This document shows positions 6,916 through 19,669 of a stretch of DNA of 64,000 nt, piece by piece (position 1 is the stretch's first letter; the number at the start of each line of letters is the position of its first letter). The position numbers and the translations under genes are program-made. The DNA is from Escherichia coli (GTDB taxonomy: Bacteria > Pseudomonadota > Gammaproteobacteria > Enterobacterales > Enterobacteriaceae), in NCBI RefSeq assembly GCF_044324785.1, contig NZ_CP172127.1; one strand, written 5' to 3'. Below the pieces are notes generated by a model. The model ran no database searches and was not told where the DNA came from. It saw nothing but the letters and a program-made list of their open reading frames with translations.

Positions 6916-9900
6916 TTACTCGGTTACCGTTTGTTTAGGTTTACGCGAAAAACGCAGCCGCAGACGGTCGAAAAAGAGATACACCACCGGCGTGGTATAC
7001 AGCGTCAGAAGCTGGCTCATTACCAGACCGCCGACAATGGTGATCCCCAGGGGTTGGCGCAGCTCCGAACCGTCACCGCCCGACAATACCAGCGGCAGCG
7101 CGCCAAACAGCGCCGCCAGGGTAGTCATCATAATCGGGCGAAAACGCAGCAGACAGGCCTGGAAAATAGCTTCCTGCGGCGTCAGGTTACCGTGCCGTTG
7201 GGCTTCAAGCGCAAAATCGACCATCATAATGGCGTTTTTCTTCACGATGCCGATTAATAGCATGATCCCTATCAGGGCGATTAGGCTGAACGGGGCATTG
7301 AACAGCTCCAGCGCCAACAGCGCTCCAACGCCCGCCGAGGGCAGGGTGGAGAGAATCGTCAGCGGATGTACGTAACTCTCGTAAAGGATACCCAGCACGA
7401 TATACACCGTGGCGATGGCGGCGATAATCAGGATCACCTGCGAGTTCATCGTCTCCTGGAACACCTGCGCTGTTCCGGCAAAACTGCCGCGCACCGTCGA
7501 AGGCACGCCAAGTTGCGTCATTGCGCGATCGATCGCCGCACTGGCGTCCGAGAGCGATTTTCCGGTCGGCAGGTTAAACGAAATGGTCGAGGCTGCCGAT
7601 AACCCCTGATGATTCACCGACAGCGGAGCATTCGCCGGTTGCCATTTAGCGAAATACGACAGCGGGATCGCTTTTCCTTCGTTATTGATAACGAACATTT
7701 TTTCCAGCGCACTGATGTCCTGGGTATAGCGCGGATCCACTTCCATCACCACTTTATACTGGTTCATCGGCTGGTAAATGGTCGAGATTTGTCGCTGACC
7801 GAAGGCGTTATTTAACAGGCTGTTGGCGGCCTGCACGTCGATTCCCAGCCGTGCCATAGTGTCGCGGTCGTAAACCAGATTCATCTCCGCGCCGTTATCC
7901 TGCTGGTCGGAGTTCACGTCCGCCAGTTCCGGCAATGTCGCCAGTTTTTTGCGGATTTTCGGCTCCCATTCGCGCAGTGCCGCCAGGTCGTCGGACAGCA
8001 ACGTGTACTGATAGCTGGCGTTCGACTGACGTCCGCCAACGCGAATATCCTGTACCGCCATCAGGAACAGATTCGCCCCCGGTTCTTTCGCCAGCTTCAC
8101 CCGCAGACGGTCGATAATTTGCTGCGCCGTTTCGCTGCGTTCGCCGCGTGGCTTGAGGGTGATAAACATCATCCCGCTGTTCACCCGCGAACCGCCGGTA
8201 AATCCGGTGACATTATCCACTGCCGGATCGTCACGGATAATTTTCATGAAATCCTGCAACTTACCGCGCATCGCCTGAAACGAAATACTCTGATCCGCCT
8301 GTATCCCGCCCATCAACACGCCGGTGTCCTGCTCCGGGAAGAAGGTTTTCGGGATCGAGATATATAGCCAGATATTCAGCGCAATGGTGCCAAGCAGCAC
8401 CACGCCCACCAGACGGGTATGATTGAGCACCCATTTCAGTGACTTGCCGTAGCTTTGTTGCAGGGCTACCAACATGCGACCAAAACCACGCAGACGCTTT
8501 TGCTCGCGCGGCTTGCTGGCTTTCAGCATCCAGCCGCACATCATCGGCGTTAGCGTCAGGGAAACCAGCAACGAAATCCCAATGGCGACAGAAAGCGTCA
8601 CGGCAAATTCGCGTAACAGGCGGCCCGGCAATCCGCCCATCAACAGTAGCGGCAGGAACACCGCCACCAGTGACAGACTCATTGATAGCACCGTAAAGCC
8701 GACTTCACGGGTGCCTTGCAGCGCGGCCTGTAGCGGTTTCATCCCCGCTTCCAGATGACGGGCAATGTTTTCCAGCACCACGATGGCGTCATCCACCACA
8801 AAGCCAGTGGCGATGGTGAGCGCCATTAACGACAGGTTATTGAGACTGAATCCGCACAGGTACATCGCCGCAAAAGTACCAATCAGCGAAACCGGCACCG
8901 CAACGGCGGGAATAATAGTGGCGCGACCCGAGCGTAGGAATAAAAAGACCACCAGAATCACCAGCGCCACCGAGATAATCAACGTTTGCTCGACTTCCTC
9001 CAGCGAGGCGCGAATGGTGGGGGAGCGATCCTGAGCAATTTGCAGATCAATCGCCGCCGGAATGGTCTCCTGCAACTCCGGTAATTTTGCCCGGATGCTG
9101 TCAACCGTCTGGATAATATTGGCTTCCGGCAGCTTGCGGATCATCAGCAAAATAGCCGGTTTGGCGTTGGTCATCCCGGCGTTGCGCACATCCTGCACTG
9201 AGTCGGTCACCGTCGCCACATCGCCCAGACGAACCGCGCCGCCGTTGTTGTAATGAATAATTAACGGCTGATATTCAGCGGCGGTTTTTAGCTCATCATT
9301 GGTCTGGATCTGCCAGCGGTGAGTGCTATCTTCCAGCGCCCCCTGCGGTTTACGCACGTTGGCATTGCTGATGGCAGTGCGAACATCGTCCAGCGACACG
9401 CCCTGATTAAACAGCGCCTGCGGATTCAGCCCGACGCGCACGGCGGGCAGTGAGCTGCCGCCAACATCGACATCACCGACACCGTCGATTTGCGAAATCG
9501 TCGGAGCCAGCTGCGTCGAGGCGAAATCGTACAGTTCACCCTGCGAATAAGTATCGGATGTCAGCGTGAGGATCATAATTGGCGCATCCGACGGGTTCGC
9601 TTTGCGATAGGTCGGACGGCTGGGCATCCCACTGGGCAGCAAACTTTGTGCAGCGTTGATCGCCGCCTGCACATCACGCGCTGCGCCGTTGATATCCCGG
9701 TCAAAATCAAACTGCAAAATAATGCGCGTGCTGCCGAGCGAACTACTGGAGGTCATTTCACTAACCCCGGCAATGCGCCCAAGTGAGCGTTCCAGCGGTG
9801 TGGCAACGGAAGACGCCATTGTCTCCGGCGATGCACCGGGCAGCGAGGCGCTGACCATAATCACCGGAAAATCGACCTGTGGCAGCGGGGCGACCGGCAG

Positions 9901-9993
9901 CATACGGAAGCCCAGTATGCCGCACAGGGTAATGGCGACCGACAGTAAAATCGTCGCCACCGGGCGGTAAATGAAGAGGGCAAAAAACTTCAC
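6916..9993 (-). CDS. mdtC: RND multidrug efflux transporter MdtC, 1025 aa
   Basis: RND/AcrB-like 12-TM architecture with large periplasmic loops. Abuts mdtB and mdtD. Confidence 0.95.
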
Positions 9994-12900
9994 TTACGCC
10001 TCCTCTTCATGACGAGCAAAGCGGCTTTTGGTCCACAATGCCAGACGGTCGAATAGCAGATAAATCACCGGCGTGGTAAACAGCGTCAGCACCTGGCTGA
10101 CAATCAGACCGCCGACCATGCCGATCCCTAACGGACGACGCAGTTCCGCGCCGACCCCGGTACTCAACATCAGCGGCAGCGCGCCAAGCAGAGCCGCCAG
10201 GGTGGTCATCAGGATCGGACGAAAACGCAACAGACAAGCCTGGTAGATTGCATCGCGTGGCGACATGCCTTGCTCGCGCTCAGCAGCCAGCGCGAAGTCG
10301 ATCATCATGATGGCGTTCTTCTTCACGATACCGATCAGCAAAATAATGCCGATAATCGCAATCACATCCAGCTCGCTACCGGCAATCAGTAGCGCCAGCA
10401 GTGCGCCGACCCCTGCGGTGGGTAGCGTCGAGAGAATGGTGATCGGGTGAATAAAGCTCTCGTACAGAATGCCGAGCACGATATACATCGCCACCACCGC
10501 CGCGACAATCAGCCAGACAGTGCTGCCAAGCGCCGACTGGAAGGCGAGGGTGCTGCCCTGGAACTGCGTGGTGATATCCACTGGCAGATTCAGCGTCTTC
10601 TCGGTGTCCATAATCGCCTGCACCGCATCGCCCAGCGAATAGTTATCCGGCACGTTAAAGGAGATGGTCGTTACCGGGAACTGATCCAGATGGTTGATGG
10701 AAAGCGGCGCAAAACGCTGCTCAATTTTGGCAATTGAGCTTAACGGCACCACGCCACCGTCGCTGCTGGTCAGGCGAATGGTATCCAGCGCCGCGAGGCC
10801 TGGGGTATTTTCGGTGTTGTGTTCCAGCACTACGCGATACTGGTTAGCCTGAGTATAAATAGTGGAAATCAGCCGCTGACCAAACGCGTTGTACAGGGCG
10901 TTATCGACATCCGCCATGCTGATCCCCAGACGGCTGGCGCTGTCGCGATCAACGTTGACATACGCCACCAGCCCTTGGTCCTGCCAGTCGCTGGAGACAT
11001 CAGAAAGCTGTGGCAGTTGCTGGAGTTTTTCCATCAACTGTGGCACCCAGGTACTGAGCGCATCCAGTGACGTGGCCTGTAAGGTAAACTGGTACTGGGT
11101 GCGGCTGACCTGAGTATCAATAGTCAGGTCCTGCGTTGGTTGCAGGAAGAGATCGACGCCCGGCACTTTATCTACTGCCGTTTGCAAACGAGCGATGACT
11201 TTTTGCACCCGATCATCACGTTCATCCAACGGTTTGAGGTTGATCTGTAAACGCGCACTGTTCAGCGACGGGTTAGTGCCATCAACGCCAACAAATGAGG
11301 TCAGGCTTTGCACTGCCGGATCCTGCAAAATCACATCCGCGACCTGGCGTTGCCGCTGGGCCATATTGGCAAAGGAGCTGGATTGCGGTGCCTGCAAAGT
11401 GCCCTGAATAATGCCGTTGTCCTGTACCGGGAAGAAACCTTTCGGAATGAACACCCACAACAGCACGCTAAGCAGCAGCGTGCTGAGCGCCACGCTTAAG
11501 GTCAGCCACGGATGATTCAGCACTTTCGCCAGTCCCTGACCATAGGCGGCGATTATCCTGTCGAACATTTTTTCCGAGGCACGGGAGAAGCGGTTCTGTT
11601 TACGCAGCGACTCCTGGCTGAGCATCCGCGCACACATCATCGGTGTCAGGGTCAGCGACACCACGGCTGAGATCAAAATCGCGACTGCCAGAGTAATAGC
11701 AAATTCGCGGAACAGTCGCCCGACGATATCGCCCATAAATAGCAGTGGGATCAACACTGCAATCAGTGAGAAGGTCAGCGAGATAATGGTAAAGCCGATT
11801 TCACCCGCGCCCTTGAGCGCCGCCGCCAGCGGTTTTTCGCCTTTTTCGATATAGCGGGAAATGTTTTCGATTACCACGATGGCGTCATCGACCACGAATC
11901 CGGTGGCGATAGTTAACGCCATCAGCGTCAGGTTATTGATTGAAAAATCGAGAAACACCATAACCGCAAAGGTGCCAATTAACGACAGCGGCACTGCGAC
12001 GCCAGGAATGATGGTCGCCGGAATATTGCGCAAAAACAGGTAGATAATCATGACTACCAGCGCGATAGCCATCATCAGTTCAAACTGGGTATCGTCGACC
12101 GATGCGCGGATGTTGGTGGTGCGGTCAGAAAGCACCGTCACTTTTACCGATTTCGGCAAACTCTCGGTGAGTTGTGGCAGCATCTGCCGGATGCTGTCGG
12201 CGGTGGAGATAATGTTAGCACCGGGCTGGCGCTGAACATTCATCACAATGGCCTGTTCTTTGTTCGCCCACGCGCCGAGCCAGCTGTTTTCTGCTCCTTG
12301 CTCTACGGTTGCGACATCGCCCAGACGAATCGGCGCGCCGTTCTGGTAGGCGATGATCAGCTGGCGATACTCTTCGGCGGATTGCATCTGGTCGTTCGCG
12401 GAAAGTGTGACCGCACGAGAAGGGCCGTCGAGGCTACCTTTTGCCGAGTTAACGTTAGCGCCGGTAATAGCGGTGCGCACGGTTTCGCTGGTCAGGCCGA
12501 GGGCGGCAATCGCCTGGGCGTTAAGTTTGACGCGAACAGCCGGACGCTGGCCGCCGGAAAGCGTCACCAGGCCGACGCCGGAAATCTGCGAGATTTTCTG
12601 CGCGACGCGGGTTTCCACCATATCTTCCACTTGCGTCATTGGCATGGCGGTTGAGGTGACGGCGAGCGTCATGATTGGTGGATCTGCCGGGTTCACTTTG
12701 CTGTAAACCGGCGGGTTAGGCAGATCGCCCGGCAACAAGTTGGTCGCAGCGTTAATCGCGGCCTGCACCTCCTGCTCGGCGACATCGAGCGGTAATGTTA
12801 GCTGGAACTGCAAAGTGATAACTGACGCACCGCCGGAACTTTGCGACGACATCTGTTTCAGGCCGGACATCTGCCCGAACTGGCGTTCGAGCGGCGCGGT

Positions 12901-14589: not shown

Positions 14590-14740
14590 CTGAAACGGGA
14601 AAGCCCCTCCCGAGGAAGGGGCCATAAATAAGGAAAGGGTCATGATGAAGCTACTCATCATCGTGGTGCTCTTAGTGATTAGCTACCCAGCATACTAAGA
14701 CTACCAGGGCGGGGGAAACCCCGCTCTACCCTCACTCCTG
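14590..14740 (-). ncRNA. sib: Sib antisense sRNA (antitoxin of ibs copy 1); boundaries approximate
   Basis: Minus-strand promoter-like TTGACA (14770..14765) and a CATACT -10 downstream of the ibs stop. Transcript would be fully antisense to ibs. Ends not determined. Confidence 0.45.
14642..14698 (+). CDS. ibs: Ibs-family small hydrophobic toxin (type I TA), copy 1: MMKLLIIVVLLVISYPAY
   Basis: 18-codon ORF after an AAGGAAAGGG SD. Sequence matches the Ibs toxin peptide family. Confidence 0.75.
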   Translation: MMKLLIIVVLLVISYPAY

Positions 14741-14917
14741 AAAGTATGCCTTCACGATAAGATTGTCAATCTGCAGGCTTTGCAGTCTGCGATCCTGCCA
14801 GCAAATATTCTTTGCGAGACGTTACGCAATAATCACATGTGAAACTATTTTATCCGCAAGTCAGCGATAGACTGCATTCAGGGCGAAAGGAGGTAAGCCG
14901 ATGATTTCAGCGGGACG

Positions 14918-15068
14918 CTGAAACGGGAAAGCCCCTCCCGAGGAAGGGGCCTTAAATAAGGAAAGGGTCATGATGAAGTGGATCATCATCGTGGTGCTCT
15001 TAGTCATAAGCTTCCCGGCTTACTAAGACTACCAGGGCGGGGGAACCCCCGCTCTACCCTCACTCCTG
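14918..15068 (-). ncRNA. sib: Sib antisense sRNA (copy 2); boundaries approximate
   Basis: Placed by repeat periodicity (~328 bp) relative to copy 1. Confidence 0.4.
14970..15026 (+). CDS. ibs: Ibs-family small hydrophobic toxin, copy 2: MMKWIIIVVLLVISFPAY
   Basis: Second repeat unit, same architecture. Confidence 0.75.
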   Translation: MMKWIIIVVLLVISFPAY

Positions 15069-15249
15069 AAAGTATGCCTTCACGATAAGATTGTCAATCT
15101 GCAGGCTTTGCAGTCTGCGATCCTGCCAGCAAATATTCTTTGCGAGTCGTTACGCAATAATCACAGAGGAAACTATTTTGTTCACGCGTTAGCGATAGAC
15201 TGCATTCAGGGCGAAAGGAGGTAAGCCGACGATTTCAGCGGGACGCTGA

Positions 15250-15400
15250 AACGGGAAACCCTCTCCCGGAGAAGAGGGCTTTTAATAAGGAAAGGGTTAT
15301 GATGAAGCACGTCATCATACTGGTGATACTCTTAGTGATTAGCTTCCAGGCTTACTAAGAACACCAGGGGGAGGGGGAAACCTCTCCCTAACCCTCACTC
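15250..15400 (-). ncRNA. sib: Sib antisense sRNA (copy 3); boundaries approximate
   Basis: Placed by repeat periodicity; a TTGACA-like box (TGTCAA on + strand) at 15427-15432. Confidence 0.4.
15299..15358 (+). CDS. ibs: Ibs-family small hydrophobic toxin, copy 3: MMKHVIILVILLVISFQAY
   Basis: Third repeat unit, same architecture. Confidence 0.75.
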   Translation: MMKHVIILVILLVISFQAY

Positions 15401-15578
15401 CTGAAATTATGTCACTCCGCCCTTAGTGTCAATCGACGGCTCTCCGTTCTTGCGAGGCGAATAGCAAAATTTTCTGCGCCGCCGGGCCTAATTCTGAAAG
15501 TTTCTTCGTTTGCTCTTATTTCATTGTTGCGGTCGGTATGATACCGGGCCTCAATAATTCTCTAAGAAAGGATTTCTT

Positions 15579-16238
15579 ATGAGCGAACAAATCACGTTTG
15601 CCACCAGCGATTTTGCCAGTAACCCGGAACCACGTTGCCCCTGCATTTTGCTGTTGGATGTTTCTGGTTCGATGAGTGGTAGACCTATTAATGAACTTAA
15701 CGCCGGATTGGTTACCTTTCGCGATGAACTGCTTGCCGACCCGCTGGCCTTAAAAAGAGTGGAACTCGGCATTGTGACGTTCGGCCCGGTGCATGTGGAA
15801 CAACCCTTTACCAGCGCCGCTAATTTTTTCCCGCCCATCCTGTTTGCCCAAGGCGATACACCAATAGGCGCTGCCATTACCAAAGCCCTGGATATGGTAG
15901 AGGAGCGCAAACGTGAGTATCGTGCAAATGGTATTTCGTATTATCGCCCGTGGATTTTCCTGATCACCGATGGCGCTCCAACCGATGAGTGGCAGGCTGC
16001 CGCCAACAAAGTGTTTCAGGGGGAAGAAGATAAGAAGTTTGCCTTCTTTTCCATCGGTGTTCAGGGGGCGGATATGAAGACTTTGGCACAAATCAGCGTT
16101 CGTCAGCCTTTTCCACTGCAGGGATTACAATTCCGTGAACTGTTTAGCTGGTTATCCAGTTCACTGCGTTCGGTTTCCCGCTCCACGCCGGGAACGGAAG
16201 TTGTGCTGGAAGCGCCAAAAGGCTGGACGTCAGTGTGA
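15579..16238 (+). CDS. yegL: von Willebrand factor A (vWA/TerY-like) domain protein YegL, 219 aa
   Basis: MIDAS-like motif [11 protein letters not shown]. Good SD (AAAGGA). Stop overlaps the yegK GTG start. Confidence 0.9.
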
Positions 16239-16996
16239 GCTGGCGTCTGGTCTATGCATCAACCGTTGGAACGTCGCACATCAGCGCGGACTTGCCTTGC
16301 CAGGATGCCTGCCAGATGCAGGTTGCCTGGTTAAATGACCAGCAGCCATTATTGTCGGTATTTGTCGCTGATGGCGCAGGCAGTGTCTCGCAGGGTGGCG
16401 AAGGCGCGATGCTCGCCGTCAATGAAGCGATGGCTTATATGTCGCAAAAAGTGCAGGGCGGGGAATTGGGGCTTAATGATGTCCTCGCCACGGATATTGT
16501 GCTGACCGTTCGTCAGCGACTTTTTGCCGAGGCGGAAGCCAAAGAATTAGCTGTTCGCGATTTTGCCTGCACGTTTCTGGGACTGATTTCATCGCCTAAC
16601 GGCACCCTGATTATGCAGATTGGCGATGGCGGCGTGGTGGTAGATTTGGGGCACGGTCTGCAACTGCCGCTCACGCCGATGGTGGGTGAATATGTCAACA
16701 TGACGCACTTCATTACCGATGAAGATGCGGTTTCCAGACTGGAAACTTTCACCAGCACTGAGCGTGCGCACAAAGTTGCAGCATTTACGGATGGTATCCA
16801 GCGGCTGGCGTTAAATATGCTGGATAATTCTCCCCATGTGCCTTTCTTTACCCCGTTTTTCAATGGGCTGGCGTCAGCAACGCAGGAACAACTCGATTTA
16901 TTACCTGAATTGTTAAAGCAGTTTTTGTCCAGCCCGGCGGTAAACGAGCGTACCGATGATGATAAAACGTTGGCACTGGCGCTGTGGACAGAATGA
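16235..16996 (+). CDS. yegK: PP2C-family Ser/Thr protein phosphatase YegK, 253 aa
   Basis: GTG start overlapping the yegL stop (GTGTGA). PP2C-like motifs (VADGAGS, DGGVVVD). Confidence 0.9.
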
Positions 16997-17060
16997 ACAT
17001 CGCATGGCGGTTGAAGACAACAGTTCAACCGCCAGTTTAAGCAATCAATATAATGGCTGG

Positions 17061-17522
17061 TTAGCGAACTAATTTTGCTCTTAGCTCGTCGGCTTCTTCT
17101 TTTGGATAGGTGACCAATAAAGGATCAATGGTATAACCGCCGTAAATTTTATCCCCGCGTGTATACATCCAGTCTGAAATATCTTCTTTCTTGATTTTCC
17201 ACTCCTGACCATATTCTACGTTTGTAACAATACCAGGGTCATTGCTTATTACGCCAATAAACATGCCGTTAGAATAAGTGACATCCGTGAGCCAGAAATG
17301 CTCGGTTCTTCCGTGATCGGTTATCGGGGCTTTGACTGCGAAAGTATCGGCATCTTTTTTATTCATAACCTCGATGAATTTATCAGTTTCTTTCCGCGCA
17401 TGTTGAATGGCGTCAGACATCGCTTGTTTATCATAACCTCCCGTCACTAACGTATCCGAAACTTCACTAAAGCCCGCGGTAGTAAAAAATAGCAGACTCA
17501 ACATAAGTAATATCTTTTTCAT
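17061..17522 (-). CDS. yegJ: periplasmic DUF2314-like protein YegJ, 153 aa
   Basis: Signal-peptide-like N-terminus MKKILLMLSLLFFTTAGFS. Convergent with yegK. Confidence 0.85.
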   Translation of the reverse strand: MKKILLMLSLLFFTTAGFSEVSDTLVTGGYDKQAMSDAIQHARKETDKFIEVMNKKDADTFAVKAPITDHGRTEHFWLTDVTYSNGMFIGVISNDPGIVTNVEYGQEWKIKKEDISDWMYTRGDKIYGGYTIDPLLVTYPKEEADELRAKLVR

Positions 17523-17722
17523 TTTTTCTCCAGAATCCCTGTGTAGTAAAAGTTAGCAATAAACCTGTGGAAGTGAATCATTATCAGGTTGGAATTGAAT
17601 TGTATCCTGATGAAATTGCATTATCATTTTTATTCTTGAGTGGGACTCTTCCCATATAGAAATAATTATAATAGGCAGTGTTATTATTCATTGAAATATA
17701 ATATGACTGCCCTTGAAACATT

Positions 17723-19669
17723 ATGAAGACAAATATAAAAGTATTTACATCGACAGGTGAATTGACCACTCTCGGGCGTGAACTGGGCAAAGGTGGCGAA
17801 GGCGCGGTTTATGATATCGAGGAGTTAGTCGATAGCGTCGCCAAGATTTATCACACGCCGCCACCCGCCTTAAAACAGGACAAACTTGCCTTTATGGCTG
17901 CGACAGCTGATGCGCAGTTGCTGAATTATGTCGCCTGGCCGCAGGCAACGCTTCACGGTGGACGAGGCGGAAAAGTAATCGGTTTTATGATGCCAAAAGT
18001 TTCTGGTAAAGAACCGATTCATATGATCTATAGCCCGGCACATCGTCGTCAACGTTACCCTCATTGTGCGTGGGATTTTCTACTCTATGTTGCGCGCAAT
18101 ATTGCTTCATCTTTTGCTACGGTTCACGAGCACGGGCATGTCGTGGGTGACGTAAACCAGAACAGCTTTATGGTAGGCCGTGACAGCAAAGTGGTGTTGA
18201 TTGATAGCGACTCCTTTCAGATTAACGCCAATGGCACACTGCATTTATGCGAAGTCGGCGTGTCGCATTTTACGCCGCCAGAGCTGCAAACCTTGCCATC
18301 ATTTGTCGGCTTTGAACGCACCGCGAATCACGATAATTTTGGCCTTGCGTTGCTGATTTTTCACGTCTTGTTTGGTGGTCGGCATCCTTATTCCGGTGTA
18401 CCGCTTATCTCTGATGCGGGTAATGCACTGGAGACGGATATTGCCCATTTCCGTTATGCCTACGCATCAGATAATCAGCGACGTGGTTTAAAACCGCCGC
18501 CACGATCTATTCCGCTGTCGATGTTACCAGGTGATGTTGAAGCCATGTTTCAGCAGGCATTCACGGAAAGTGGCGTGGCAACCGGGCGTCCGACGGCAAA
18601 AGCGTGGGTAGCGGCACTTGATTCTCTACGCCAACAGTTAAAGAAATGTACCGTTTCGGCAATGCATGTTTACCCCGGTCATTTGACTGACTGCCCGTGG
18701 TGTGCGCTGGATAATCAAGGCGTTATCTATTTTATTGATCTCGGCGAAGAGGTCATTACCACCAGCGGTGATTTTGTGCTGGCGAAAGTCTGGGCGATGG
18801 TGATGGCGTCAGTTGCACCACCAGCATTGCAACTGCCATTACCCGATCATTTCCAACCGACTGGCAGGCCGCTTCCTTTAGGCCTGTTACGGCGTGAATA
18901 CATCATTCTGATTGAGATCGGACTGTCAGCGTTATCGCTGTTGCTTTGCGGCCTTCAGGCAGAACCGCGTTATATTATTTTGGTTCCTGTGCTGGCGGCT
19001 ATCTGGATTATTGGCAGCCTGACAAGCAAAGCGTACAAAGCAGAAATCCAGCAACGCCGTGAGGCGTTTAATCGCGCGAAAATGGACTATGACCATTTAG
19101 TCAGCCAGATCCAACGGTTGGGCGGGCTGGAAGGTTTTATCGCCAAACGGACGATGCTCGAAAAAATGAAGGACGAAATTCTTGGGTTACCGGAAGAAGA
19201 GAAACGCGCTCTGGCAGCACTTCAGGACACCGCAAGGGAACGGCAGAAGCAGAAGTTTCTGGAGGGATTTTTTATTGATGTTGCCTCTATTCCCGGCGTT
19301 GGCCCTGCGCGTAAAGCGGCGTTACGGTCCTTTGGTATTGAAACGGCGGCAGACGTTACCCGACGGAGCGTTAAGCAAGTTAGAGGTTTTGGTGATCATC
19401 TGACCCAGGCGGTTATCGACTGGAAAGCAAGTTGCGAACGCCGTTTTGTGTTCAGGCCGAATGAAGCGGTAACGCCAGCAGACAGACAAGCGGTAATGGC
19501 AAAAATGGCCGCCAAACGACATCGGCTGGAATCGACGTTGACTGTCGGCGCGACAGAGTTGCAGCGATTCCGCCTTCATGCTCCAGCACGGACCATGCCG
19601 TTGATGGAACCTTTACGTCAGGCGGCAGAAAAACTGGCTCAGGCGCAGGCTGATTTAAGCCGTTGCTGA
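17723..19669 (+). CDS. yegI: Hanks-type (eukaryotic-like) Ser/Thr protein kinase YegI, 648 aa
   Basis: Glycine loop GKGGEGAVY, VAK lysine, catalytic-loop variant HVVGDVNQNS, DSDS variant of DFG. Predicted TM segment, then a C-terminal helical domain. Confidence 0.9.
   Translation: MKTNIKVFTSTGELTTLGRELGKGGEGAVYDIEELVDSVAKIYHTPPPALKQDKLAFMAATADAQLLNYVAWPQATLHGGRGGKVIGFMMPKVSGKEPIHMIYSPAHRRQRYPHCAWDFLLYVARNIASSFATVHEHGHVVGDVNQNSFMVGRDSKVVLIDSDSFQINANGTLHLCEVGVSHFTPPELQTLPSFVGFERTANHDNFGLALLIFHVLFGGRHPYSGVPLISDAGNALETDIAHFRYAYASDNQRRGLKPPPRSIPLSMLPGDVEAMFQQAFTESGVATGRPTAKAWVAALDSLRQQLKKCTVSAMHVYPGHLTDCPWCALDNQGVIYFIDLGEEVITTSGDFVLAKVWAMVMASVAPPALQLPLPDHFQPTGRPLPLGLLRREYIILIEIGLSALSLLLCGLQAEPRYIILVPVLAAIWIIGSLTSKAYKAEIQQRREAFNRAKMDYDHLVSQIQRLGGLEGFIAKRTMLEKMKDEILGLPEEEKRALAALQDTARERQKQKFLEGFFIDVASIPGVGPARKAALRSFGIETAADVTRRSVKQVRGFGDHLTQAVIDWKASCERRFVFRPNEAVTPADRQAVMAKMAAKRHRLESTLTVGATELQRFRLHAPARTMPLMEPLRQAAEKLAQAQADLSRC

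Follow-up and report, generated by a model that had tools for sequence, protein, structure and literature searches.

The yegL-pphC-yegI cassette of Escherichia coli as a probable phosphorylation switch of the broad TerY-P class, closest to plasmid ter-cluster triads

A window of 64,000 nucleotides from Escherichia coli (contig NZ_CP172127.1, assembly GCF_044324785.1) contains what is almost certainly the already named and partly characterised yegL-pphC-(yegJ)-yegI cluster, which encodes a von Willebrand factor A (vWA) protein (YegL), a PP2C-type Ser/Thr phosphatase (PphC, also called YegK), and an atypical membrane Ser/Thr kinase (YegI). Judged from sequence comparison, the three-gene core belongs to the broad TerY-P class and lies closest to the triad found in plasmid ter clusters, apart from the validated antiphage system that bears the same name. 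The explanation favoured on balance is that the core is a self-contained and mobile TerY-P-class phospho-switch, with YegL as its partner protein, a link to nucleic acid, and a normally silent role in conflict or stress. The identities of the parts are near certain, and the physiological role is the weak step of this explanation. All of the genes have names, biochemical work has been published on two of the three proteins, and the triad class has been on record since 2012.

Relation to the ter-cluster triad

The definition of the TerY-P class goes back to Anantharaman, Iyer & Aravind 2012 (cited in PMC11090510), and in the form quoted by Bell et al. 2024 the triad combines a TerY-like vWA protein and a PP2C-like enzyme with a Ser/Thr kinase to which a zinc ribbon is fused. 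Each of these elements has a counterpart in the yeg locus, namely a TerY-type vWA protein with an intact metal ion-dependent adhesion site (MIDAS), a related PP2C, and a kinase joined to a zinc ribbon, arranged as a conserved cassette. The first reference system used for comparison was the tellurite-resistance cluster of the IncHI2 plasmid pSH15G1452, with the gene order terW-terY1-terX-terY2-terY3-PP2C-kinase. The alignment of YegL with the TerY1 protein of this plasmid shows 31% identity (E 3e-26), spans almost the whole of YegL, and takes in the C-terminal W-x-S-x-S helix; the hhalign comparison of the YegL family profile with TerY1 gives a probability of 99.7%. The corresponding values are 98.4% (E 4.7e-15) for the YegK profile against the plasmid PP2C and 99.0% for the YegI profile against the kinase-plus-zinc-ribbon protein. 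The latter alignment covers 325 columns and continues into the post-kinase C...CPxC segment, where the zinc-ribbon segment of YegI is matched to the C...CPYC segment of the plasmid kinase; the ter kinase has I-D-V-D where YegI has I-D-S-D. Consistent with these results, the main tblastn matches of the YegL-type vWA protein are about 2300 ter-bearing plasmids. An earlier preliminary description of the window had called the locus a TerY-P-like triad, and both the architecture and the remote homology to the plasmid triad bear this out.

The two triads share three homologous proteins in the same order (vWA, PP2C, kinase) and differ in elaboration. The ter cluster has three TerY paralogues, one with a TerY-C domain, as well as TerX, whereas the yeg locus has a single vWA protein of 219 amino acids (aa); the plasmid PP2C has 545 aa with a long N-terminal extension, whereas the yeg enzyme is a minimal one of 253 aa. 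In addition, the 499-aa plasmid kinase has a canonical-looking HxD...N loop and contains neither a membrane hairpin nor a helix-hairpin-helix (HhH) region, whereas YegI has a VGDVNQNS loop, a two-pass anchor, and a C-terminal HhH. The plasmid triad is embedded among ter genes, whereas neither the annotated 17.5-kb region of E. coli nor the yeg-type loci that were sampled contain a TerD, TerZ, or TerC gene; this linkage is typical of the founding TerY-P triads but may not be a defining trait. The CnuH/CnuE-associated triads likewise combine a TerY-like vWA protein with a perfect MIDAS, a PP2C-like enzyme, and a Ser/Thr kinase with a C-terminal zinc ribbon, but by description they are built into large restriction-type operons, whereas the yeg cassette stands alone and its kinase adds the hairpin and HhH.

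Separation from the antiphage TerY-P system

The second reference system was the validated antiphage TerY-P of E. coli G3/10, whose sequence was taken from the supplement of Stokar-Avihail et al. The antiphage TerY-P (Gao et al. 2020) is also a three-gene operon for a vWA protein, a phosphatase, and a Ser/Thr kinase, and its vWA protein carries a DxSGS MIDAS. Its kinase ends in an OB fold, whereas YegI ends in the zinc ribbon, membrane hairpin, and HhH. It is also rare and accessory, being found in 4 of 5426 complete E. coli genomes; yegLKI, by contrast, is near-universal and occupies another chromosomal locus. In G3/10 the system lies in a defence island, directly upstream of a type I restriction-modification (RM) system and next to an IS5-family element.

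The preliminary description had linked the locus to this antiphage report and had proposed searches with hidden Markov models of TerY-P as a check. PADLOC-DB v2 contains three such models, namely TerY (PDLC02224), PP2C (PDLC02222), and STK_OB (PDLC02223, a kinase with a C-terminal OB fold). No PADLOC model matches YegL or YegK at E <= 10, and YegI gives only weak matches to generic kinases (PD-T4-6, MkoA) and none to STK_OB; yeg-type triads from Pseudomonas, Rhizobium, and Deinococcus give the same picture. Since PADLOC returned no match for the canonical IncHI2 proteins TerY1, TerY2, TerY3, and PP2C either, the negative result for the yeg proteins was uninformative until the G3/10 system was included as a positive control, for which the models gave E values of 3.5e-173 (TerY), 5.6e-108 (PP2C), and 9e-265 (STK_OB). 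In hhalign comparisons of the yeg profiles with the G3/10 proteins, the vWA core reached 87.5%, the G3/10 protein being 277 aa long with large insertions, and the kinase reached 72% over the generic kinase core only, while YegK and the G3/10 PP2C showed no detectable relation (probability 0.1%). The PADLOC result with its positive control and the lack of a detectable relation between the PP2Cs rule out the yeg locus as a member of the validated antiphage family, and the model check thus went against the preliminary description for that family. The antiphage report therefore concerns a distant version of the triad and carries over to the yeg locus by architecture only.

NCBIfam release 20 returned no TerY-P model even for the G3/10 proteins, which RefSeq names 'TerY-P anti-phage system', and is therefore unusable as a membership test. 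The TerY-P variant of Pseudomonas aeruginosa (Costa et al.) was not found when its primers were compared with plasmids by BLAST or in two exact-match scans of metagenome contigs.

Distribution and integrity of the cassette

A scan for the YegI family, covering one genome per species and requiring two conserved YegI motifs, a requirement by which it undercounts the family, recovered 80 loci from Beta-, Gamma-, and Deltaproteobacteria, Planctomycetota, Acidobacteriota, Cyanobacteria, Actinobacteria, Myxococcota, Chloroflexota, and metagenome-assembled genomes (MAGs) of Methanoregula. The family comprises 3226 clusters at 50% identity (E <= 1e-30). Sufficient upstream sequence was available for 75 loci, and in 72 of them the kinase gene is immediately preceded by genes for a YegL-like vWA protein and a YegK-like PP2C, in the same order and on the same strand. 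The flanks of the cassette vary between loci, and the cassette is also carried by plasmids of Pseudomonas, Rhizobium, and Deinococcus. YegL is the most conserved member of the triad in all 68 non-Escherichia loci compared, with a median identity to the E. coli protein of 65%, as against 41% for the PP2C and 43% for the kinase.

Several individual loci illustrate the range of the family. Complete triads were observed in archaeal Methanoregula MAGs (loci L057, L060, L074, and L078), with a kinase about 35% identical to YegI, which implies transfer between domains if the contigs are correctly binned. Two Thiotrichales MAGs (L070, 5869-7602; L072, 9998-11788) encode YegI-like kinases with no upstream vWA or PP2C gene; these are 42-44% identical over the kinase and zinc-ribbon part, the one in L072 is preceded by an open reading frame (ORF) of 871 aa, and they may represent a different architecture of the YegI family. 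On the Rhizobium rhizogenes plasmid pColt5.8b (L009, 1401-8575), the triad directly follows a His-Xaa-Ser radical-SAM maturase cluster (hxsBCA) and is itself followed by genes for an SH3-domain protein, a nucleotide-binding protein, and a DUF262 protein of the GmrSD N-terminal type; SH3 is fused to the kinase in some YegI relatives. In a Candidatus Methylophosphatis MAG (L036, 1749-11355), the kinase frame is divided into short ORFs and the corresponding piece of the vWA gene is found some 7 kb upstream of the PP2C gene, and this copy is apparently decayed.

Properties of the three proteins

YegL matches the Pfam VWA family (E 1.4e-9). In addition to D27, S29, and S31 of the DVSGSMSG motif, T94 and D131 contribute to its MIDAS; these five residues show no variation among 16 orthologues, and in a set of 70 their conservation is at least 97%. 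Its Ser-rich C-terminal segment (S193-T203) contains four serines, S193, S195, S200, and S202, that are invariant among the orthologues compared.

PphC matches Pfam PP2C_2 (E 7.5e-52), and its metal-binding aspartates D24, D46, D131, D186, D242, and D243 are invariant, in keeping with the PP2C profile. It has been characterised as an active, rather slow, Mn-dependent PP2C-like phosphatase that dephosphorylates YegI and is itself phosphorylated by YegI (Rajagopalan, Nagle & Dworkin 2018); activity towards p-nitrophenyl phosphate and casein has been published. The gene is present at a coverage of at least 80% in 5398 of 5426 complete E. coli genomes. Its alleles are unusually divergent, with 2328 of 5414 genomes (43%) in the band of 90-95% identity to the window allele, compared with 60 of 5423 (1.1%) for a piece of mdtB of equal length (11000-11761). 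The 92% identity between K and B strains given by Rajagopalan et al. fits this band, and the pattern suggests two old haplotypes, recombination, or diversifying selection.

According to Rajagopalan & Dworkin (2020), YegI is an active Ser/Thr kinase that prefers Mn2+ and carries VGDxxQxS in the place of HRDxxxxN and DSD in that of DFG. It autophosphorylates on serines within and beside the DSD(S) loop and spans the inner membrane twice, with both termini in the cytoplasm. The atypical motifs reported in the preliminary description (DVNQNS and DSDS) are exactly those published, and its assignment of the vWA, PP2C, and kinase proteins, of the YegL motif, and of a membrane anchor in YegI agrees with the literature as well. 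The domain layout comprises the kinase domain, a small beta-hairpin zinc ribbon (residues ~305-330), a linker, a hydrophobic hairpin (~389-434) whose sequence is poorly conserved and whose hydrophobicity is kept, and a long, helical, coiled-coil-like cytoplasmic C-terminal domain. The protein has the bilobal protein-kinase fold with the beta3 Lys and the catalytic Asp, and departs from the HRD and DFG consensus by its VGD and DSD. G24, K41, D143, N145, D161, D163, S164, C309, H315, C324, and C327 are invariant across 116 relatives, and the zinc ribbon is predicted to bind metal. An AlphaFold2 (AF2) model based on these 116 sequences has a predicted local distance difference test score (pLDDT) of 95 and a predicted template modelling score of 0.84; it replaced a run with 15 sequences in which the kinase domain reached a pLDDT of 62.7.

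The C-terminal domain of YegI holds an HhH region with the highly conserved motif IPGVGPARKAALRSFGIETAADV, which gives weak matches to the HhH of Y-family polymerases. Pfam HHH_5 matches residues 517-553 with E 1e-3 in the full-length protein and 2e-4 in the C-terminal fragment, and it is found in 11 of 17 YegI relatives at E <= 0.1. A search of the PDB with the full-length profile returned no match at E <= 0.01, and the C-terminal profile gave HhH-like matches, all below the threshold. HHH_5 is the sole Pfam match of YegI, which shows no match to Pkinase even at E <= 10, so that of the Pfam families named in the preliminary description those of the vWA protein and the phosphatase were recovered and that of the kinase was not. 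The Pkinase profile is passed by 27 of 32 YegI relatives with other C-termini, which include SH3, TPR, and a topoisomerase-type zinc ribbon. Compared with the classical Hanks/PP2C pairs (PknB/PstP, PrkC/PrpC), YegI carries no extracellular PASTA or other sensor domain, deviates from the HRD, DFG, and motif-III Glu consensus and fails Pfam Pkinase, and is obligately linked to a vWA protein.

Genomic setting and the yegJ insertion

The ORFs between positions 15579 and 19669 (Table 1) have exactly the coordinates given in the preliminary description. RefSeq assigns the names yegL (vWA domain-containing protein), pphC (protein-serine/threonine phosphatase PphC), yegJ, and yegI (protein kinase YegI) to these four genes in an E. 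coli locus that is 97.9% identical to the window, and a 5.5-kb query around the locus finds a match in 5423 of 5426 complete E. coli genomes, with this same value as the best identity. The overlap of yegL and pphC noted earlier is real: the hexamer GTGTGA lies at 16233-16238, the true overlap is its last four nucleotides, GTGA, and this arrangement suggests translational coupling.

Table 1. Coordinates of the features at the yeg locus, as window positions, and of the G3/10 reference system, as positions in locus L095
Feature	Position	Strand	Basis or remark
SIB_RNA matches	14627-14769, 14955-15097, 15284-15432	-	three copies
Ibs ORFs, 18-19 aa	14642-14698, 14970-15026, 15299-15358	+	three copies
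yegL	15579-16238	+	ORF, 219 aa; TerY-type vWA protein
MIDAS motif DVSGSMSG (YegL residues 27-34; D27, S29, S31)	15657-15680	+	read from translation
GTGA overlap, pphC GTG start over yegL TGA stop	16235-16238	+	read from sequence; same 4-nt overlap in RefSeq
pphC (yegK)	16235-16996	+	ORF, 253 aa, GTG start; PP2C-type Ser/Thr phosphatase
Low-GC inserted segment carrying yegJ	~16988-17760 (approximate)		alignment with yegJ-less Escherichia loci
yegJ	17061-17522	-	ORF, 153 aa; DUF2314 protein, signal-like N-terminus
yegI	17723-19669	+	ORF, 648 aa; membrane Ser/Thr kinase; RefSeq 'protein kinase YegI'
Hanks-type kinase domain (residues ~6-303, K41 included)	17738-18631	+
Catalytic loop GDVNQNS (DVNQNS = YegI residues 143-148)	18149-18166	+	read from translation
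DSDS in place of DFG (YegI residues 161-164)	18203-18214	+	read from translation
Post-kinase zinc ribbon, putative ligands C309, H315, C324, C327 (CPWC)	18647-18703	+	residues invariant in 116 sequences
Hydrophobic hairpin (residues ~389-434), two membrane passes	18887-19024	+	AF2 helices 391-411 and 417 onwards
Helix-hairpin-helix region (residues ~517-573)	19271-19441	+	Pfam HHH_5
G3/10 TerY-P system (H4P47_RS00305-00315; L095)	7001-10260		TerY 277 aa, PP2C 239 aa, STK_OB 561 aa

The preliminary description had spoken of a compact module, but in the window the module is not compact: the opposite-strand gene yegJ separates pphC from yegI. This gene lies in a segment with a guanine-plus-cytosine (GC) content of 0.36-0.44, compared with about 0.51 in the flanks, and 1924 of the 5426 complete E. 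coli genomes (35%) carry the segment. According to the alignment, the insertion took the place of the final codons of pphC and of roughly the first 16 codons of yegI. In loci without yegJ the yegI start overlaps the pphC stop; in the window the ancestral three-gene operon is therefore split, the 3' end of pphC has been rewritten, and yegI begins with a new 5' end. YegJ matches Pfam DUF2314 (E 2.9e-25), and no homologue of its gene was found in the 80 related loci or in any other species sampled, other Escherichia species included. It is a recent, lineage-specific insertion that uncouples yegI from pphC and stands outside the ancestral system. As candidate members of the cassette, yegJ was rejected because it is found in some E. 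coli only and yegD because it adjoins the cassette in Escherichia only. A difference between K and B strains in yegJ is described in both Rajagopalan papers (2018, 2020), and YegJ was recovered as an RNase E interactor in a two-hybrid screen (2026 RNA Biology paper); its N-terminus resembles a signal peptide, yet the reported partner RNase E is cytoplasmic.

The locus is flanked in RefSeq by mdtABC and an Ibs toxin array on one side and by yegD-alkA on the other. The type I toxin-antitoxin array and the Hsp70-like gene mentioned as neighbours in the preliminary description were both confirmed: the Ibs/Sib system forms three tandem copies at 14627-15432, just 5' of yegL, and the Hsp70/actin-like yegD, downstream of yegI, matches NF008673 (E 7e-244). 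Strain FCI5 also has three Ibs copies at this site, and K-12 has two. A scan of the locus for promoters and terminators gave counts near the shuffled expectation. The best identity of the mdtB segment (11000-11761) to any of the 5426 complete E. coli genomes is 98.4%, and the yegJ segment is 99.9% identical to that of strain N3; the lineage of the window seems not to be closely represented among the complete genomes, or the window seems to be mosaic.

Defence genes in the neighbourhood of yeg-type triads

Pfam searches around individual triads revealed several genes of known defence families. The neighbours include BrxR, JetB, an SLFN-type helicase, and ScoMcrA-like, MazG-like, and SNase proteins in Piscinibacter; AbiH, a KAP NTPase, and Tn7-like genes in Chromobacterium; GmrSD, type I RM, SymE, and BrnA in Klebsiella spallanzanii; and GmrSD, type I RM, and Abi_C on one metagenomic contig. 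A crude tblastn search with those defence proteins located type I RM genes in a further set of loci (L023, L024, and L059), and a BrxR and a ScoMcrA-like gene in one locus each. For 20 further triads, the closest ORF with a length of 200 aa or more on either flank was compared with PADLOC. These 40 proteins yielded full-length matches to Avs2 (2926 bits), GajA (715 bits), and a C5 DNA methyltransferase (371 bits) and one partial match to mad3, the remainder being weak, generic, or absent; triads beside GajA or Avs2 include those of P. alcaligenes (L038) and Rhodoferax (L017). If defence genes are assumed to make up 2-3% of genes, four strong matches among 40 neighbours exceed expectation, with a binomial P of about 0.01-0.03. 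The association of the triad with defence genes is suggestive only.

Proposed role and alternative explanations

In the proposed mechanism, YegI autophosphorylates and PphC removes the phosphates, which is the published part, and YegL, on the strength of its co-inheritance and conservation, would be the third and essential partner, which reads this phosphorylation state or is controlled by it. The reasoning is that MIDAS sites use a metal to bind ligands that are acidic or phosphorylated, and YegL may accordingly hold a phosphorylated or acidic residue in this way; its Ser-rich C-terminal segment is a candidate phosphoacceptor. The zinc ribbon and HhH of YegI would be held at the inner face of the membrane, with nucleic acid as the likely input or output. 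This part of the proposal draws on the HhH/zinc-ribbon architecture itself, on the exchange of the C-terminus in relatives, in one case for a topoisomerase-type zinc ribbon, and on the finding that YegL and YegI each raise endogenous DNA damage when overproduced (Xia et al.). The most likely role would be a conflict or stress response that is normally silent and is set off by invading DNA, phage, or DNA damage. The patchy and mobile distribution, the defence neighbours, the raised allelic divergence, and the transcriptional silence of the locus, for which no condition with expression was found in the Rajagopalan papers (2018, 2020), argue for such a system over a housekeeping kinase.

Several observations weigh against this proposal. 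In E. coli, 5413 of 5426 complete genomes carry the cassette at one and the same chromosomal site, which is atypical of defence systems, as these are usually accessory. K-12 strains, which carry the cassette, are standard phage-sensitive hosts. PADLOC recognises neither YegL nor YegK and sees in YegI only a generic kinase, the HhH assignment is weak (E about 1e-3), many triad neighbourhoods contain housekeeping genes only, and the enrichment of defence neighbours rests on the assumed background. The literature searched contains no report that links yegL, pphC, or yegI to phage; no phenotype, substrate, trigger, or inducing condition for the cassette; and no DNA binding, YegL phosphorylation, or contact between YegL and YegI. 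The preliminary description had regarded the role of the yeg version as unresolved, and this is still the case in the RNA Biology paper of May 2026, which calls the pathway unknown.

Among the alternatives, a housekeeping Ser/Thr signalling pair of the PrkC/PrpC or PknB/PstP type, with many substrates, YegL as an accessory, and no link to conflict, would suit a near-universal locus at a fixed site in a species in which YegI is among the few known Ser/Thr kinases and about 100 phosphoproteins have no assigned kinase; kinase-phosphatase operons of such kind are common, and recurrent yegI mutations in long-term evolution experiments have been published. It is nevertheless unlikely in view of the published absence of detected expression under standard growth, the patchy occurrence across phyla and archaea with new flanks each time, on plasmids, and in one Tn7-like neighbourhood, the missing extracytoplasmic sensor domain in YegI, and the strict three-gene linkage with the vWA protein as the most conserved member, which points to a closed system and not to a hub kinase. 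A module for metal or tellurite-type chemical stress, in which a MIDAS metal sensor would switch DNA repair or processing through phosphorylation, corresponds to the role first proposed for TerY-P triads. It draws on the fact that each of the three proteins has its closest relatives in the tellurite-resistance cluster of IncHI2; the role proposed for TerY-P in such clusters, as given in Bell et al. 2024, is that of a metal-sensing phosphorylation switch. The intact MIDAS, the preference of both enzymes for Mn2+, the DNA damage caused by overproduction, and the presence of alkA two genes downstream agree with it, but no gene of the TerD/TerZ family or TerC lies within 10 kb, in the window or in sampled yeg-type loci, and no metal phenotype has been reported, which makes this account quite improbable. 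The ter cluster is itself tied to phage and colicin resistance, so that this account overlaps with the favoured one.

Still less credence is given to the reading of the locus as a true member of the antiphage TerY-P system of Gao et al. 2020 that protects against T7-like phages by the same mechanism. It shares the three domain types and the gene order, the published system protects against T7-like phages/Autographiviridae with survival of infected cells, and the variant of Costa et al. was found by hand after detection tools had missed it, which indicates that the models are narrow. However, the failure of TerY, PP2C, and STK_OB to match the yeg proteins alongside a working positive control, the hhalign values for the PP2C and for a kinase that has an OB fold in place of the YegI C-terminus, the insertions in the G3/10 vWA protein, and the occurrence of the genuine system at another locus beside type I RM all speak against membership, which is therefore very unlikely. 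It is highly improbable that the E. coli copy of an acquired cassette is cryptic and decaying and serves no function today: the published transcriptional silence in the laboratory, the break in pphC-yegI coupling caused by yegJ in 35% of genomes, the many truncated or fused YegI forms on record, and the published slowness of PphC would fit, but all three ORFs are intact in the window, pphC is well covered in nearly all genomes, the catalytic, MIDAS, and zinc-ribbon residues are all kept, and both enzymes are active in vitro.

Beyond the favoured reading of a silent phospho-switch, it is conceivable, although doubtful, that the yeg-type triads, with more than 3,000 clusters at 50% identity, constitute a stand-alone defence system that acts against phage or mobile DNA, has so far gone unrecognised, and is missed by PADLOC and probably by DefenseFinder. 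The kinase would then sense incoming nucleic acid through its HhH/zinc ribbon and switch YegL, and the E. coli copy would have been domesticated and silenced.

Significance

No part of the system is new, and the finding itself is thus ordinary. What the analysis adds is the separation from the validated TerY-P system by means of a positive control, the homology of all three proteins to the ter triad, the conservation of the cassette, and the recurrent defence neighbours. YegI and PphC are the only Hanks-type kinase/PP2C pair described in E. coli, and the functional unit to which they belong is a cassette of strictly three genes, in which the uncharacterised YegL is under the tightest constraint and not either of the enzymes. 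The true relatives of this cassette are the ter-cluster triads rather than the validated TerY-P defence system, and defence detectors do not see the family, beside which Avs, Gabija, RM, GmrSD, and BREX-regulator genes are often located. In this way, an 'unknown kinase' becomes the subject of a testable hypothesis in the best-equipped model organism.

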